From Octopus vulgaris (taxonomy: Eukaryota): DNA of 64,000 nt. The notes beneath the pieces were generated by a model that was given only the letters and a program-made list of their open reading frames with translations, ran no database searches and was not told the origin of the DNA. The translations under genes were made by a program, and so were the position numbers. Shown here piece by piece: positions 14,333-64,000 of the stretch (its first letter is position 1; each line of letters begins with the position of its first letter). The DNA is taken from assembly GCA_951406725.2 (NCBI GenBank), contig OX597839.1, forward strand, positions 29,760,001-29,824,000, read 5' to 3'.

Positions 14333-14439
14333 TTGTTGTATTTGTGGATGGTCATGTTGCCAGTTTAGCCAATGAAAACACTCGCACTGTATATTCGGTG
14401 TTCACTTGCTTCAGCTTCATTTCAAATTTATTATATTTC

Positions 14440-14484
14440 GGCCAGAGTTCTTTCGTCACACCTCTGTGGCCTCATCAGTGGTCC
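14440..14484 (-). ncRNA. Minimal hammerhead-like motif (family shared with 60862-60906)
   Basis: GGACCA CTGATGA G GCCAC-AGAGGT-GTGAC GAAA GAAC TC TGGCC. The other copy has a perfect GTCAC/GTGAC stem II but the core reads CTGATGC. Confidence 0.6.
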
Positions 14485-15189
14485 TTTGCTTTCTTCTTTC
14501 TTATTTGTGACTCTCCTTCCTAACGATCTGCCATTTTGTATTCCTGTTGCATGTGTCTTTATTTGCGGATGCGTATATCAACGTGTGTGTGTCTGTGTTT
14601 GGTAAGTGTGTGTGTGGGAATGTGTACGGTACCTGCATTATCTGTAACCCCTGTTTATTCACGTTCAATTAATTTTCATAATCTTATTTATTTGTATTTT
14701 TTTTATTCTCATCTGCTTACTTTATTATTTTTTCTTTCTCTGTATTAATTTATTGTATTTTGTGTATATATATAATTAATTAAAAAGGAAAAAAATTATC
14801 AGTAATAGTAAAACAAAAGTTTTGTGATATAGAGATAAATGTCTGATAATAGGTTTTAGAGTTTTGTCTTGGGGGTGAGGGTCATAAATCACTTCCTAGT
14901 TTCGGCGGGGGAGGGGAGGTTGAAATTTGATATTGTTGTGATGAGTGGTCAGTCTACATCTATCCATCACTACAGGTTTATAGCTTTAAGTTTATAGTGT
15001 GTATGTGCGTGCATATACACACGCATACATACATACATACAGACAGACATACATACATACACACAGGCGTACGTACATACATACATACATGCATGCATGC
15101 ATACATGCGTGTATACATACATACACACATACATACGTACATATATATATAACGAACTAACTGTTACTTTCTCAGATGCAGCATGGATT

Positions 15190-15240
15190 TTTGTCAGTGA
15201 ACAGGTCGCGGTCTTAAAGCGACGAAAATATTTTGACAAA
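15190..15240 (+). ncRNA. Type I hammerhead motif with G3-C8 swapped core
   Basis: TTTGTCA GTGAACA G GTCGC-GGTCTTAAA-GCGAC GAAA ATAT TT TGACAAA. Stem I is 7 bp, stem II is 5 bp and stem III is the palindrome AATATT. Confidence 0.75.
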
Positions 15241-15496
15241 TTAAACTTAAATGTTGAAGTGAATCGAACGGCTTTTGTGTGTTTCTTAAATGGCTTACAA
15301 ACACCTTCCACGCTGCAATTGTTATAATTATTTAATTCCAATTATTTATCTATAGTATTACTTTCACATTATTATTAGTTTATTGCGATCTTATTCTGTC
15401 ATCAGGTTGTGGTGTGGGGGCGTGGGCTAGTGTTCCGTTCTAGTTTTCTATTTACGCTAGATTTATCTTTTATTATGTATGTACTATTAATAATAA

Positions 15497-20961: not shown

Positions 20962-22950
20962 ATGCTGGATAAAGAAATGCCTGGAAATGCACCTACTCTG
21001 CAAAGCCTTTTATCTGTAAGTATGAGATCATGGAGAACCACACTAACTTTGAACAGTGACAATGAATCTCTAAATGCTGGTGATGTAAAAATTTCATGTG
21101 GCATTTTCCAGGGTGACTCACTATCACCACTCCTCTTTTGTTTAGCCTTGATACCTCTCTCAAAATTGCTCAATACGGATATAAAATGTTTGATAAAAAT
21201 ATAAATCATCTCATTTACATGGATGATTTAAAGCTCTTTGCAAAAAACGACCAACAACTCAAGGGCTTAGTAGCGATTGTTAAACAATTCAGTGATGACA
21301 TCAGAATGCAATTTGGCCTTGATAAATGTGCAAAAGTACATTTATCAAAGGGAAAATGACAGAAACATCTAACGTGAACCTTGACCAGCAGAATGTCATA
21401 AAAGAATTAGACCCAGCGGAGAGCTACAAGTACCTAGGGGTAATTGAAGGGGGCGGAATAAGGCATTCAGTGATGAAGGAAAGGATCAGGAGAGAATGTT
21501 ATCGCAGAGTAAGAGCAATACTCAAGACAGAGTTGAATGCGAGAAACAGGATCGAAGCGATCAATGCTTTAGCCATACCAGTCGTGACTTACAGTTTCAA
21601 TATCGTTAACTGGTCAATTACTGAAATATGTCAGCTCGACAGAAAAATACGAAAACTGTTGACAATGCATAGAATGCACCACCTTAAGGCAGATATAGAA
21701 CGACTTTATCTGCCAAGAAAAGAGAGAGGCCGTGGTCTTTTACAACTGGCAATAACAATGAAGATTGCTACAATTAGCCTAGACACCTACCTGAAAAGCT
21801 CTGGGGACTGGATGTTAAAACTTGTCTCAAAATATGAAAACAAGAAAGCATCATACTCAGTAACAAAACAGGCAAAGGAATATCTAAGTGAATTCCGAAT
21901 ACAACAAATTTCGGAATTAGACATACAAGAAACACGCACAGAAAAAGCTAGGCGCATGAAAACCCGTGCTAAAACTGCGGCCTTAGATATTCTGAATGAT
22001 AAATGGCAAAAAAAACTTCTCTATGGCAAATACCCAAAGAGAGCGAATAGTGCAGATGTTGACAAAGCCCTGACACATCAAGGGCTAATGGCCTCTGGCT
22101 TAAAATCTGAAACAGAAGGGTTTATCATAGCAGCTCAAGATCAATGCCTACCAACAAGAAACTACCAGGCCAACATATTAAAGAACGGCAGTAGCCCAAC
22201 ATGTGTATGTCAACAACAAAATGAAACCATCGATCATGTTGTCTCCAAGTGCAGTCTTCTAGCGCCTACAGAGTATCTCAACCGGCATTATAGAGCTGCA
22301 CAATATATTCACTGGGTAATTTACAAAAACCTGGATTTGCCCCATGAAAAAAACTGGTGGGAGCACAAACCACAAACCACATATCCCTCCTCTGGAACTT
22401 CACCATTCAAACTGACAGAAAGATAGGTGCAAATAGGCCAGACATCATATTGAAAGACTTCAGACAAAGAACATGCCTCCTCATTCATATGACTGTCCCA
22501 ATCGATATAAACGTATCTGTCAAGACCTACCAAAAACTGAGCAAATATAAAGATCTTGTAATGTGTAAGATCATGTAATCAGCAAAATGTGGAAGCTGAA
22601 GACTAAAACAATACCTGTTGTCATAGGTGCCCTGGGAATGATAGCGAAAGGGGCTGATTGCTACATAACTCAGATAGCAGGAAACCCCAAAATGGCAGAA
22701 ATTCAAAAGATAGTGCTCATGGGAACTGCTCATATCTTACGCAAAATACTTTCTATGTAATCTCAAGGTTTAAAACAAACATAATTTTCGTATGTTATTT
22801 TTAGACATTCACTAGTACAACACTAAATAGAAAACCAAATATATGGCACACTAGGCATAACAACACCGTGAACTTCCAACCTATTGTCTCTTGAGGTCTC
22901 TGGGTGAGACTTGGAGCCAACTTGTACAAATATAAAGCAAAAGTCAAACA
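20962..22950 (+). mobile_element. 5'-truncated R4/Dong-clade non-LTR retrotransposon (RT, CCHC, restriction-like endonuclease) inserted in (TAA)n
   Basis: GIFQGDSLSPLLF, HLIYMDDLKLF, YKYLG, GLKSETEGFIIAAQDQ, C..C..ETIDHVVSKC and RPDII..KLSKY motifs, with frameshifts. Flanked by (TAA)n on both sides. Confidence 0.92.
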
Positions 22951-35750: not shown

Positions 35751-36901
35751 GGACTGGATGTTAAAATTGTCTCAATATATGAAAACAAGAAAGCATCATA
35801 CTCAGTAACAAAACAGGCAAAGGAATATCTAAGTGAATTCCGAATACAACAAATTTCGGAGTTAGACACACAAGAAACAAGCACAGAATAAGCTAGGCGC
35901 ATGAAAACCCGTGCCAAAACTGCGGCCTTAGATATTCTGAATAATAAATGGCAAGAAAAACCTCTCTATGGCAAATACCCAAAGAGAGCGAATAAGGCAG
36001 ATGTTGACAAAGCCCTGACCCATCAATGGCTAATGGCCTCTGGCTTAAAATCTGAAACAGAAGGGTTTCTCATAGCAGATCAAGATCAATGCCTACCAAC
36101 AAGAAACTACCAGGCCAACATATTAAAGAACGGCAGTAGCCCAACATGTGTATGTCAACAACAAAATGAAACCATTGATCATGTTGTCTCCAAATGCAGT
36201 CGTCTAGCGCCTACAGAGTATCTCAACAGGCATTATAGAGCTGCACAATATATTCACTGGGTAATTTACAAAAACCTGGATTTGCCCCATGAAAAAAACT
36301 GGTGGGAGCACAAACCACCTCCAGTGCTTGAAAATGACCACATCTCACTCCTCTGGAACTTCACCATTCAAACTGACAGGAAGATAGATGCAAATAGGCC
36401 AGACATCATATTGAAAGACTTCAGACAAAGAACATGCCTCCTCATTGATATGACTGTCCCAATCGATATAAACGTATCTGTCAAGACCTACCAAAAACTG
36501 AGCAAATATAAAGATCTTGAAATAGAAATCAGCAAAATGTGGAAGCTGAAGACTAAAACAATACCTGTTGTCATAGGTGCCCTGGGTATGATAGCGAAAG
36601 GGGCTGATTGCTACCTAACTCAGATACCAGGAAACTCCAAAATGGCAGAAATTCAAAAGATAGTGCTCATGGGAAGTGCTCATATCCTACGCAAAATACT
36701 CTCTATGTAATCCCAAGGTTTAAAACACTTTTATTTTTTTAAATTTATTTATCAGACATTCACTAGTACAACACAAAAAAAAACCAAGTGTATGGCACAC
36801 TAGGCATAGCAACAATGTGAACTTCCAACCTGTTGTCTCTTGAGGTCTCTGGGTGAGACTTGGAGCCAACTTGTACAGACATAAAGCAAAAGTCAAACAT
36901 A
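34433..36901 (+). mobile_element. Cluster in (TAA)n/(CAA)n: Dong-like 3' fragments (34433-34811, 35751-36901) plus copy 3 of the 555-bp element (34996-35551)
   Basis: ORF 35901-36710 is nearly identical to the C-terminus of 20962-22950. Both fragments end ..AAAGCAAAAGTCAAACATAG(AAT)n. Confidence 0.92.
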
Positions 36902-44228: not shown

Positions 44229-46191
44229 TGTATGTATGTATGTATGTATTTATGTATGTATGTATGTATGTATGTATGTATTTATGTATGTATGTATGTA
44301 TTTATGTATGTATTTATGTATGTATGTATGTATGTATGTATGTATGTATGTATTTATTTATTTATGTATGTACGTATGTATGCATGCATGCATGCATGTA
44401 TGTATGTATGTATGTATGTATGTATATATGTATGTATTTATGTATGTATGTATGTATGTATGTATGTATGTATGTATGTATATATGTATGTATTTATGTA
44501 TGTATGTATGTATGTATGTATGTATGCATGCATGCATGCATGTATGTATGTATTTATGTATGTATGTATGTATGTATGTATTTATGTATGTATGTATGTA
44601 TGTATGTATTTATGTATGTATGTATGTATTTATTTATTTATGTATGTACGTATGTATGCATGCATGCATGCATGTATGTATGTATGTATTTATGTATGTA
44701 TGTATGTATGTATGTATGTATTTATGTATGTATGTATCTATGTATGTATGCATGCATGCATGCATGTATGTATGTATGTATTTATGTATGTATGTATGTA
44801 TGTATGTATTTATGTATGTATGTATGTATGTATGTATTTATTATGTATGTATGTATGTATGTATGTATGTATGTATTTATGTATGTATGTATGTATGTAT
44901 GTATGTATTTATGTATGTATGTATTTATGTATGTATGTATGTATGTATGTATGTATGTATGTATTTATGTATGTATGTATTTATGTATGTATTTATGTAT
45001 GTATGTATTTATGTATTTATGTATGTATGTATGTATGTATGTATGTATGTATGTATGTATGTATGTGTGTATGTATGTATGTATGTATGTATGTATGTAT
45101 GTATGTATGTATGTATGTATGTATGTATGTATGTATTTATGTATGTATGTATTTATGTATGTATGTATGTATGTATGTATGTATTTATGTATGTATGTAT
45201 GTATGTATGTATTTATGTATGTATGTATTTATGTATGTATGTATGTATGTATGTATGTATGTATGTATGTATGTACGTATTTATATATGTATGTATGTAT
45301 GTATGTGTGAGTATGTATGTATGTATGTATGTGTGTATGTATGTATGTATGTATGTATGTATGTGTGTATGTATGTATGTATGTATGTCTGTATGTATGT
45401 ATGTATGTATGTGTGTATGTATGTATGTATGTATGTATGTATGTGTGTATGTGTGTATGTATGTATGTATGTATGTGTGTATGTATGTATGTGTGTATGT
45501 GTGTATGTATGTATGTATGTATGTATGTATGTATGTATGTGTGTATGTGTGTATGTGTGTGGTTTTTTATATACTTATATATATGTATATATATATATAT
45601 GTGTGTATATATATATGTATGTATATATGTATGTATGTGTATGTGTATGTATGTGTATGTATGTATATGTATATATATATGTGTATATATGTGTGTATGT
45701 ATGTGTATGTATGTATATATATATATATATATATGTGTGTAGATATATATATATATATGTGTACACTCGTGTGTTTATGTATATGTAAGTATGTAGAGTT
45801 ATGTGTATGTGCATGTATGTATGTATATATACATATGTGTAGATAGGTATATACGTGTATGCTTATATGTATGTTTCCGTCTGTACAAAGGGTAACTGCA
45901 TGTGTATATATATCTATTATTCTTTATTCATTATTTATTACATGAGTATGCGTTTGTATGCATGTATGTATTTATGTATATAAGGAGGCGCGTGAGTGTG
46001 TGTATGTGTATGCACTTGTATAAACATATGTATACATTTATGCATGTATGTGCTTGTGTGTGTTTATATATATATATATATATATGTATGTATATATACA
46101 CACATATATATGTATATATATGTATATATATATATATATGTGTGTGTATGTGTGTGTATATGTGTATGTGTGTATATATGTATATGTATAT

Positions 46192-49765: not shown

Positions 49766-50646
49766 ACATACATACATACATACATACATACATACATACA
49801 TACATACATACATGCATATAGGTATGCATACATACATACATACATACATACATACATACATACATACATACATACATACATACATACATGCATATAGGTA
49901 TGCATACATACATACATACATACATACATACATACATACATACATGCATATAGGTATGCATACATACATACATACATACATACATACATACATACATACA
50001 TACATACATGCATATAGGTATGCATACATACATACATGCATATAGGTATGCATACATACATACATACATACATACATACATACATGCATATAGGTATGCA
50101 TACATACATGTACATACATACATACATACGCACATCACATACCTACATACATACATACATACATCATACATACATACATACATATATACATACATGCAAA
50201 CATACGCACATACATACATACATACATATATACGCACATACATATATACATACATACACCCATACATACATACATATACACATACATACATACATACATA
50301 CATACATACATACATACATGCATATAGGTATGCACACATACATGTACACACATGTATATATACGCATATCACATACCTACATACATACATCATACCTACA
50401 TACATACATACATACCTACATACATACATACATACATACATACATACATACATACATACATACATACATACACACATATAGTTATGCACACATACATGTA
50501 CACACATACATACATACGCACATACATACATACATATATACATACATATATACATACATGCAAACATACGCACATACTTACATACATACGCACATACATA
50601 CATACATACATACATACATACATACATACATACATACATACATACA

Positions 50647-50677
<31 letters not shown>
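49766..50677. repeat. (TACA)n microsatellite with periodic TGCATATAGGTATGCA interruptions
   Basis: Read directly. Confidence 0.95.
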
Positions 50678-50716
50678 CATGAACTAACTGTTACTTTCTC
50701 AGATGCAGCACGAAGC

Positions 50717-50767
50717 TTTGTCAGTGAACAGGTCGCGGTCTGAAAGCGACGAAAACATTTTGACAAA
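50717..50767 (+). ncRNA. G3-C8 hammerhead motif, copy 2
   Basis: TTTGTCA GTGAACA G GTCGC-GGTCTGAAA-GCGAC GAAA ACAT TT TGACAAA. Confidence 0.72.
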
Positions 50768-51662
50768 TTACATTTAAATGTTGATGTGAATCTAACGGTT
50801 TTTGTGTGTTTCTTAAATAGCTTACAAACACCTTCCACGCTGCAATTGTATCGTTTTACAGAAACATTTGAAATTGGAAATTGTTTTCTCCTTTTCTCAT
50901 TTAACTTGTTACATTTATTTATTCACCCTTCGAGGCTTATATAGTATTTCGTCTGTCATTACGTTCTGAATTCAAATTCCACCGAGGTCGACTTTGCTTT
51001 TCATCCTTTCGAGGTCGATAAATAAAGTACCAATTTCGCACTGGGGTCGATGTAATCGACTTAATCCGTTTGTCTGTCCTTGTTTGTCCCCTCTATGTTT
51101 AGCCCCTTGTGGGCAGTAAAGAAATAGGTATTTAACATTAGCATAGGCGCAGGAGTGTCTGTGTGGTAAGTAGCTTGCTTACCAACCACATGGTTCCGGG
51201 TTCAGTCCCACTGCGTGACATCTTGGGCAAGTGTCTTCTGCTATAGCCCTGGGCCGACCAATGCCTTATGAGTGGATTTGGTAGACGGAAACTGAAAGAA
51301 GCCTGTCGTATATATGTATATATATGTATATGTGTGTGTGTGTTTCTGTTTGTTCCCCAAGCATTGCTTGACAACCGATGCTGGTGTGTTTACGTCCCTG
51401 TCACTTAGCGGTTCGGCAAAAGAGACCGATAGAATAAGTACTGGGCTTACAAAGAATAAGTCCCGGGGTCGATTTGCTCGGCTAAAGGCGGTGCTCCAGC
51501 ATGGCCGCAGTCAAATGACTGAAACAAGTAAAAGAGTAAAAGAGAGAGTATACAGTTGACTGGTGCTCCAATTTATATCAATCCAAGTTGTACGGATGCT
51601 ATCCAAGACCTGGCATGATGTGCTAATGAGGTGACAATGAGGTTTATAATTTTCCCCTTCAG

Positions 51663-56948: not shown

Positions 56949-57010
<62 letters not shown>

Positions 57011-57147
57011 CGGAGATGTACTTGCATAGCAAGTGACTTGATTTGAGATCGTGTGCTGGAACGAAAACAATTGCAGCGTGGAAGGTGTTTATAAGCCATT
57101 TAAGAAACACACAAAACCGTTAGAATCATTTCAACATTTAAATTTAA

Positions 57148-57198
57148 TTTCTCAAAATATTTTCGTCGCTTTGAGACCGCGACCTGTTCACGGACAAA
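57148..57198 (-). ncRNA. G3-C8 hammerhead motif, copy 3
   Basis: TTTGTCC GTGAACA G GTCGC-GGTCTCAAA-GCGAC GAAA ATAT TT TGAGAAA. The element continues to a 3' end at (TA)n near 57008. Confidence 0.65.
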
Positions 57199-57259
57199 GC
57201 TTCACACGCACATATATATATATATATACATATATGTATATATATTATATATATGTATA

Positions 57260-57326: not shown

Positions 57327-57414
57327 TTCGGTACAATTGTTTCATACGAAGACCAGCTTTATTAAGGCTGCAAATATTGCAGCAAATACAAGTGACCCGT
57401 ACTCATCAGCCAAA
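57327..57414 (-). ncRNA. Type I hammerhead motif with extended structured stem II
   Basis: TTTGG CTGATGA GTACG..CGTAT GAAA CAATTG TA CCGAA. Stem III is the palindrome ACAATTGT, and there is an inner hairpin GCTGCAA-TAT-TTGCAGC. Confidence 0.85.
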
Positions 57415-60637: not shown

Positions 60638-60686
<49 letters not shown>

Positions 60687-60861
60687 GTTTAAATATTTGT
60701 TGTGCAAGATTTTTTATGTGAAGTCGTGTGTTGAAACAGATATTGTTATATTTCGGAATGGTCATATTGCCAGTTTAGCCAATAAAAAAGCACGCACTAT
60801 ATATTTGGTGTTATTTTGCTTCAGTGATATTTATTTTTTACATTAATCTTAATCTTATTTC

Positions 60862-60906
60862 GGCCAAAGTTCTTTCGTCACACTCCTGTGACCGCATCAG
60901 TGGTCC
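60862..60906 (-). ncRNA. Degenerate hammerhead, same family as 14440-14484
   Basis: GGACCA CTGATGC G GTCAC-AGGAGT-GTGAC GAAA GAAC TT TGGCC. About 200 bp of flank is shared with 14345-14580. Confidence 0.5.
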
Positions 60907-61090
60907 TTTGTTTTCTTCTCACTTATTTGTGTCTCTCCTTACTAACCGTCAGCCATTCTGTATTTCTATTGTATGTCTTCATTTGCGCATGCTTATATCT
61001 CTATGTGCGTCTATGTTTATTTATTGGCTAAACTGGCAATATGACCATTCCGAAATATAACAATATATATATATATACATTTATATATAC

Positions 61091-62656: not shown

Positions 62657-64000
62657 AAGGTGTTAGCCAAGAGGTTGGCGCTTGTCATCGAGAAACTGGT
62701 CGACAAGGCGCGAACGTGCGCCGTGCCCGGCCGGACCATCCATGACAATCTCCACCTGATACGCTACATCATTGACAGGGTAGTTAACGAACCTGGCATG
62801 GGTGGGGCGCTGATCAATTTGGATCAATCGAAAGCTTTCGATAGGGTAGACCATCGATACTTGGAGGCGGTCCTCTGAGCGGCTGGCTTCGGTCCCGTCT
62901 TTCGCAGTTGGATAGCCGCTTTTTACAGAGGCATCCGTTCGGTAATTCGTGTAAATGGACATCTATCGAGACCTTTCGACATCGCACGTTCGGTCTGTCA
63001 GGGATGCCCCCTCTCGGCGCTTCTATACGTATTGACTCTCGAGCCACTATTGCGGAAGCTGGCGACTCTGAGGGGCATCCCGCGAGAACTGGGATGCGGG
63101 ACGAGCGTATCTGCATACGCGGACGACGTCACCGTCATAATGTCTAGCCACGTGCACATCGAGCAGGTCGGCGAGACACTGAAAAACTACGAAGCGGTGA
63201 CAGGAGCAAAAATCAACCGGGAAAAGTCAGTGGGCTTGCGACTAGGCACCTGGAGAAGCAAGCCCGTGCCGTCCACCAGCGCCTCCATCGTGGGACGCTA
63301 GACCGACGGCCCGGTTAAGTTGCTCGGGGTCTGGTTTGGTCCGGACCTCCAAGTGGAGAAGAACTGGAACGAGATAACGAGTAGGGTGGTCACTCTCGCC
63401 CGGCAGTGGGCCGAGAGGAAACTGTCCCTAAAAGGTCGGGCGGAGGTGGCGAACACGTACATCGCGTCCGTCATCTACTACAGCCTGACCGTCGTGCCTT
63501 GTCCCGACCCTACCATCATCAAACTAGAACGCATTCTCTTTCGCTTCTTGTGGAAAGGATGCGTCCCGATGGTCAGGCGATCCATTTGCTGTCAACACCC
63601 GTCTCCATGACCGAACTGCAGTCGTGGATCAAAAAGAGGCCGAGGAAGGGCGAATGGCACCGCGAGAGTCGCGTTGCTCTCAAGCAACTCTGCTGTCCTG
63701 GGTCGACCTTGAGTGACTTCATTACAACCAAGGCATTATATAGGGGATTAGTGGAGGGGAGGTACGACGACGATCTTGGGGCGAACCTGGACGTCGACGA
63801 GGAGTACCTGACCCGCCTGTTCGGGACGATTTTCGGGCCAGGGCCCATGGACAACTTCCAGAGATCCCTGGCCTGGCAGTGCTACCGAGAAGCGCTACCC
63901 GTTCGGGATAAGCTCTACAGACATGGCTCGAGAAACACGGGGCCGACCTGCCCGAGATGCGGTCAGAGCGACGAAACCGTTCTGCACGCACTCGTGCTGT
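62656..64000 (+). mobile_element. 5'-truncated Tx1/L1-clade LINE RT, starting directly in (TATC)n and running off the window
   Basis: YKVLAKRL..PGRTIHDNL..LDQSKAFDRVDH, QGCPLS, SAYADDVTV, KINREKS, LLGVWFG, LSLKGR and a C-terminal CPRC..ETVLH motif, with in-frame stops. Confidence 0.92.

Follow-up and report, generated by a model that had tools for sequence, protein, structure and literature searches.

A swapped G3-C8 core pair in a predicted hammerhead of a high-copy Penelope-like element family in Octopus vulgaris

Three copies of the motif in the window

The window analysed here, a 64-kb stretch of Octopus vulgaris DNA, holds three copies of a motif for which a minimal type I hammerhead fold is predicted, its core pair swapped to G3-C8. 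Copy 1 lies in a 5′-truncated pseudo-LTR (pLTR) of a Penelope-like element (PLE) family, hereafter family A. This pLTR occupies 14804..15323 (+) and is 86% identical over 525 nt to the element at locus L115; it takes in the hammerhead, the beginning of the ORF and an internal microsatellite. Its hammerhead (15190..15240, +) consists of stem I (15190-96/15234-40), stem II (15205-09/15219-23, closed by G10.1-C11.1) and a palindromic 6-nt stem III (15227-32) around a core with G3 at 15197, C8 at 15202, A9 at 15203, an extra G at 15204 and G12 at 15224. GAAA is present, and U17 at 15233 places the predicted cut at 15233/15234. The first PLE ORF codons align to 15290..15323 (+), and the copy ends there at the first 3′-end site. 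Copy 2 is a pLTR fragment at 50535..50856 (+) with its hammerhead at 50717-50767 (G3 50724, C8 50729), in which one change breaks the stem III palindrome. Copy 3, a pLTR fragment with tail at 57007..57199 (-), carries its hammerhead from 57198 to 57148 (G3 57191), and two of its seven stem I pairs are broken, the innermost among them.

The first-pass annotation had reported three copies sharing a G3-C8 core, two of them with a perfect 7-bp stem I. All three were located and their core letters confirmed (G3 at 15197 and 50724 on the plus strand and at 57191 on the minus strand), and copies 1 and 2 indeed have a perfect 7-bp stem I together with a 5-bp stem II. The 13-nt core has three exact matches in the window, against an expectation of 0.43 even with two mismatches allowed. 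A descriptor that leaves the 3-8 pair free gave two strict matches in the window, copies 1 and 2, and none in each of ten block shuffles. With RNAfold, stems I and II form the minimum-energy fold of copy 1 (z -2.6) and copy 2 (z -1.7), and the minimum-energy fold of copy 3 differs from this hammerhead.

Two points of the earlier description need correction. The 5′ boundary that copies 1 and 2 were said to share about 40 nt upstream is the edge of the internal microsatellite, and element DNA runs on past it through the microsatellite, to 14804 in copy 1 and to at least 50535 in copy 2. Substitutions between the two copies, which had been placed in the loops of stems II and III, carry no information on selection, being differences between individual insertions. 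In copy 2, the change in stem III looks like decay, since it breaks a palindrome that a dimer would require and that is intact in 126 of 140 distinct arms.

Other repeats surround these copies. Three more motifs resembling hammerheads, at 57409 (-), 60350 (+) and 48367 (-), have canonical cores and a long insert in stem II, and probably come from other PLE families. Two microsatellite-rich segments, 44645-45501 (-) and 50149-50609 (+), match the element 3′ UTR at 74-78%. The frames at 1183-1902, 21326-22423, 35892-36707 and 62879-63999 (+) resemble what we take to be mariner-type transposase and LINE RT fragments.

The parent element and its relatives

A search of the 2.8-Gb genome with a 17-nt core motif gave 6,746 exact matches (3,429 + 3,317), counted as arms rather than insertions, against one in a reversed control. 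The copies belong to a dispersed family with a type I fold and a genuine G3-C8 swap, in line with the initial proposal of a natural hammerhead family. Most are short pLTR insertions in (TA)n, often inverted pairs, and longer ones carry a microsatellite-rich region plus RT and endonuclease frames upstream. The 30 loci that we fetched were single copies or head-to-head inverted pairs with (TA)n flanks and fell into two 3′-end classes about 55 nt apart, the longer tail of an inverted pair usually lying on one arm. Tandem short repeats each with a hammerhead, a trait of non-LTR retrozymes, were absent from these 30 loci. Inverted pairs, (TA)n flanks and tail classes are PLE traits (PMC8557442, PMC11167929), and the tail and internal RT start sites of an anole PLE match the two 3′-end classes (PMC11167929).

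A 26-nt motif used to seek the continuation of the ORF found two matches and no full element; the elements came from a protein search, which recovered numerous near-identical copies whose long open frames reach 1,025 aa. L115 has the structure pLTR-ORF-pLTR, with hammerhead, ORF, endonuclease and hammerhead in that order and a spacing of 4.26 kb. Its ORF begins with an ATG 56 nt after the predicted cut, whereas in the anole Poseidon element the ORF starts inside stem II (PMC11167929). Pfam placed a C-terminal GIY-YIG domain above cutoff in one of three proteins tested (E=1.8e-5). The RVT_1 match was weak (E=0.018), and protein relatives are named RT-domain proteins, the best of 136 showing 54% identity with the source label Octopus vulgaris. 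A C-x3-C-x2-C linker precedes the endonuclease, fitting the CX2-5CxxC of Neptune-type elements. The family thus has the features of an EN+ PLE, namely one ORF with RT and C-terminal GIY-YIG, ORF-flanking pLTRs, inverted 5′ arms, a tail at one end and AT-rich targets; the N-terminal endonuclease of Naiad/Chlamys is not seen. Neptune-type EN+ PLEs likewise have RT followed by C-terminal GIY-YIG, the Cys linker, (TA)n targets, inverted truncated arms and a one-arm tail (PMC8557442). This likeness is by description only, and the tail is about 55 nt here versus 30-40 in Neptune-type PLEs.

The motif therefore sits in the pLTR of a young, high-copy RT + GIY-YIG PLE. All 11 young family-A loci checked (L113-L120, L127-L129) carry G3-C8, and the same core appears in loose-end consensus rows of contigs from organisms A, C and D. 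Long copies of an older subfamily, many of them G3·G8, are concentrated on contig C16. On contig C31 (L133, L134), RT fragments resembling one another form a cluster and contain TGA stops in frame. An unbroken 182-aa frame beside a family-A copy (L049:1571-2116, +), possibly a retrocopy, bears what we take to be a resemblance to dCMP deaminase.

As in minimal type I hammerheads of PLEs, stems I and II enclose the core and the motif ends in stem I. Family A has U4 G5 A6, A9, G12-A15.1, G10.1-C11.1, U16.1, H17, an unpaired base between 9 and 10.1 (the G bulge) and a short palindromic stem III; the consensus letters C3 and G8 are replaced by G3 and C8, making it a variant. Published PLE hammerheads share the pLTR site, the extra base between 9 and 10.1, G10.1-C11.1, the short palindromic stem III, a common U17 and thousands of dispersed truncated copies (PMC4209133). 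The extra G before stem II had been taken as distinctive, and by our hand count an extra base is ordinary in the published set (54/56) but is a G in only 1/56. The UU cleavage site, described as unusual, is not, as U17 occurs in 24 of the 56. What sets family A apart from that set is its 7-bp stem I and G3-C8 itself: the 56 comprise 53 C3-G8, 2 U3-A8, 1 U3·G8 and 0 G3-C8 (hand count), and the descriptors used there could not have detected G3-C8.

The nearest natural precedent is the compensatory U3-A8 exchange, listed as a natural covariant in the main text of Perreault 2011 (PMC3088659) and present in Schistosoma PLEs (PMC4209133). That exchange consists of two transitions and keeps a pyrimidine at 3 and a purine at 8; the family A exchange is two transversions and, unlike U3-A8, puts a pyrimidine at position 8. 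In the literature searched, as far as its accessible text goes, G3-C8 occurs only as an engineered variant (PMC3884650, PMC11167929), although Lünse 2017, on PLE hammerhead variants, might hold a precedent. The core motif is absent from the supplement of PMC8557442, and the available text of PMC7229834, PMC6155905 and bioRxiv 10.64898/2026.07.22.740005 does not mention G3-C8. A natural G3-C8 hammerhead would be new, the combination so far being a laboratory mutant in the literature searched. The first-pass annotation expected searches for CUGANGA to miss the family, and descriptors that fix C3 and G8 indeed cannot find it. Rfam gave no hammerhead match for copy 1, for a canonical-core sister copy or for six related-family loci; its miss of copy 1 need not reflect G3-C8, since canonical-core controls were missed too. 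Among the 150 of 365 Rfam matches listed for the whole window, we saw only microsatellite-driven miRNA and similar hits.

We identified related families with other core states. Family B has a C3-G8 core, an RT about 55% identical to that of family A and an intact 1,312-aa frame in L121. The window contains a young copy at 60679..60928 (-), with a C3-G8 core, C9, U17, C3 at 60900 and 98.8% identity to L143, and an old one at 14436..14485 (-), with a canonical C3-G8-A9 core, C17 and C3 at 14478. C9 is a second deviant core: among the first 100 listed of 4,371 family B matches (hand count), position 9 is C in 88, A in 9 and U in 3, and young intact family B comprises the window copy at 60679-60928, L121-L126 and L139-L148. 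Separately, L135:4464 (-) and L143:4059 (+) each hold a hammerhead-like motif that belongs to a different repeat family; the bulged base is an A and stem III is CG. Among the best matches, family C has C3 in 20/21, G8 in 20/21 and C17 in 21/21, and family D, an old family with a wobble in the core pair (L066, L224-L243), has U3 in 18/21 and G8 in 18/21. Families C and D are linked to PLEs by the shared pLTR and ORF start and by the related copy L062, which has a canonical core and, upstream of it, part of an endonuclease; no ORF was recovered at the sampled loci.

A covariation alignment of 12 hand-picked rows from about five related lineages supports a fold that would have been maintained across these families by compensatory changes, which appear between families in stems I, II and III and in pair 3-8. 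In this alignment 91% of cells pair. Two-sided changes affect 6 of 12 pairs and 17 cells versus 5.5±2.8 after shuffling, a control that overstates significance for related rows. Pair 3-8 is CG in 7 rows, GC in 4 and UG in 1, the Watson-Crick states being G-C in family A and C-G in families B and C. U4, G5, A6, A13, A14, A15.1, U16.1 and the pair G10.1-C11.1 are invariant in 12/12 rows, and G12 is kept in 11/12. By blastn, the similarity of family D to copies 1 and 2 is limited to the 49-nt hammerhead, and fold and core still appear to have outlasted the flanks. These patterns bear on neutral hitchhiking, in which a decayed hammerhead was amplified by one successful source lineage with its structure unselected. 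Copy number does reflect a few source elements, and majority differences between young and older copies (0/22 in the motif's unselected 3′ half vs 11/101 elsewhere) are too few for significance. Inside the motif, however, such differences occur only in loop II (4/8), and together with the between-family compensatory changes this makes hitchhiking very unlikely.

Insertion ends and the predicted mode of action

We looked for a cleavage footprint at the 5′ ends of 30 young copies, selected solely on sequence 3′ of the cut, and none (0/30) begins within 3 nt of it. Twelve of the 30 ends lie at -55 to -59 from the cut, 11 beyond -200 and 7 between -10 and -50, six of the latter at inversion joints. 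The cluster about 57 nt upstream of the cut indicates that these insertions were copied from uncut RNA. An untemplated G precedes the retained AG at 8/11 plain junctions (p=0.001), a count that leaves out L135, L086 and L091 as mis-assigned (a looser count gives 14/22), and long copies have C or T at this position in 62/62 cases. The junction G fits a cap-derived base, with transcription starting there. The candidate start in copy 1, at about 15174, overlaps a splice-acceptor-like signal at 15157..15175 (+), which consists of a branch-point-like motif, a pyrimidine tract and YAG and has an equivalent in copy 2 at 50684-50702 (+); the 5′-end hot spot falls at the equivalent place. Since an internal promoter and an intron are described in the corresponding region of Penelope (PMC2377424, PMC4209133), this putative signal just before the hot spot is possibly the end of a pLTR intron, and splicing is an alternative origin of the hot spot; in both cases the template ran across an uncut hammerhead. 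A search for the upstream donor that a spliced exon would need gave no junction match except microsatellite matches in 5/50 arms. A DPE-like reading of the core was dropped as its spacing did not fit. A predicted 6-bp helix (15177-15182/15313-15318; L115:5984-6120) encloses the hammerhead, pairing the probable 5′ terminus of the RNA with nucleotides immediately upstream of the first 3′-end site, and may position reverse transcription.

That positions 3 and 8 pair and that a compensatory swap can restore activity, as previously stated for this motif, agrees with PMC8495972, in which G8C slows the reaction 10^5-fold and adding C3G recovers part of the rate. The closest known case is an engineered C3G/G8C mutant of the anole Poseidon element, which has the same core letters, also in a PLE, and is partly rescued in vitro; that hammerhead needs the element protein (PMC11167929). 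There the swap is a laboratory mutant; here a large family carries G3-C8 as its wild-type form. PMC3884650 reports, as data not shown, that C17 leaves a G3-C8 variant less active than G17 does. PLE hammerheads are generally slow and likely act as dimers (PMC4209133, PMC6765202).

In the full 5′ region of family A, stems I and II have predicted probabilities of 0.66-1.0. Such stability would suit a ribozyme that works efficiently as a monomer and defines the 5′ end of the insertion RNA, but closing stem III in a monomer is predicted to cost 5.4 kcal/mol and 0/30 copies start at the cut, which leaves this reading with hardly any probability. The reading that we prefer, at a probability of roughly 0.6, is slow and conditional cleavage at U17, in which two copies would pair through the palindromic stem III, an all-A-U duplex that is itself weak (-0.2 kcal/mol), or the element protein would aid folding. 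Transcription would begin some 58 nt before the cut, and reverse transcription would start inside the ORF and copy an uncut, probably capped RNA. Cleavage would then be a regulated or late side step, such as the processing of tandem read-through RNA, that insertion does not need.

The same observations can be taken to mean that what preserves the fold is a role other than catalysis, for instance binding of the element protein, or its overlap with promoter or splicing signals, with cutting at a useful rate lost and G3-C8 having arisen by drift through tolerated mismatches. Besides the uncut templates, this would account for the spread of three deviant cores and for a motif no more than about 65 nt from the 5′-end hot spot, beside the splice-acceptor-like signal. 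The anole hammerhead is also dispensable for insertion in vitro, its mutants having no effect, and the reported RNA-seq shows no ends at the cut (PMC11167929). It fits less well that the catalytic-core letters and A15.1-U16.1 are kept across families whose flanks cannot be aligned, and that the 3-8 pair is Watson-Crick in 11/12 rows. We regard a non-catalytic role as rather unlikely, though it is the strongest competitor of the preferred reading.

The path to G3-C8 and its meaning

To examine how the swap may have arisen, we compared the 6,746 paired G3-C8 matches with those changed at a single position. With C8 fixed, 200 matches differ at position 3 (A 64, T 27 and C 9 among the first 100 listed), and with G3 fixed, 422 differ at position 8 (T 44, G 38 and A 18 among the first 100 listed). 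Fixing G8 and freeing positions 3 and 7 gave 309 matches, the first 100 listed comprising G3 62, U3 21, C3 15 and A3 2; all three are hand counts. G3·G8 is present in about 160-190 matches, where about 18 are expected from decay, which is 8-10 times the transversion rate at position 3, and it occurs in several loop II backgrounds (17 rows). This excess and the variety of backgrounds argue that mismatched sources were copied. G3·G8 may be an intermediate or a later change: the endonuclease tree (47 rows, several of them chimeric fragments with long branches) gives no family A root, and the old family-A copies L135 and L136 already carry G3-C8.

The first-pass annotation had argued that a double compensatory change is unlikely by drift. 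The change need not have been simultaneous, because mismatched 3·8 states propagated, as G3·G8 in family A and U3·G8 in a related family. An ancestral C3-G8 could have changed in two steps through a tolerated mismatch, with pairing restored as G3-C8, and U17 may have eased the swap, as G3 could have mispaired with a C17. By chance alone, the odds of ending on a pair would be near 1 in 10. Of the changes at position 3, G-to-C is the least frequent (9 of the 100 listed), so restoration of the pair favours selection about tenfold, a modest argument that assumes the same mutation spectrum in source elements. The further claim that the family was selected for cleavage is plausible but weaker than proposed, and unproven, because the G3·G8 subfamily spread, the C9 sister family spread and 0/30 insertions start at the cut. 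On a stronger version of the preferred reading, held only tentatively and at somewhat less than even odds, family A would carry an active, hitherto unreported natural G3-C8 hammerhead, fixed in a retrotransposon family that still moves. The genome would then preserve the path of the swap, from C3-G8 families, a U3·G8 family and a transposed G3·G8 intermediate to the restored G3-C8, on a permissive U17 background.

A large family with near-identical young members provides a ready natural test of G3-C8, known elsewhere as a partly rescued laboratory mutant. Searches whose descriptors require C3 and G8 would undercount PLE hammerheads, a point relevant to elements described as having none. Insertion from uncut RNA, as the 5′ ends indicate, is consistent with the in vitro results for the anole element, and G3-C8, together with the C9, U3·G8 and G3·G8 forms, bears on whether PLE hammerheads need to cut.
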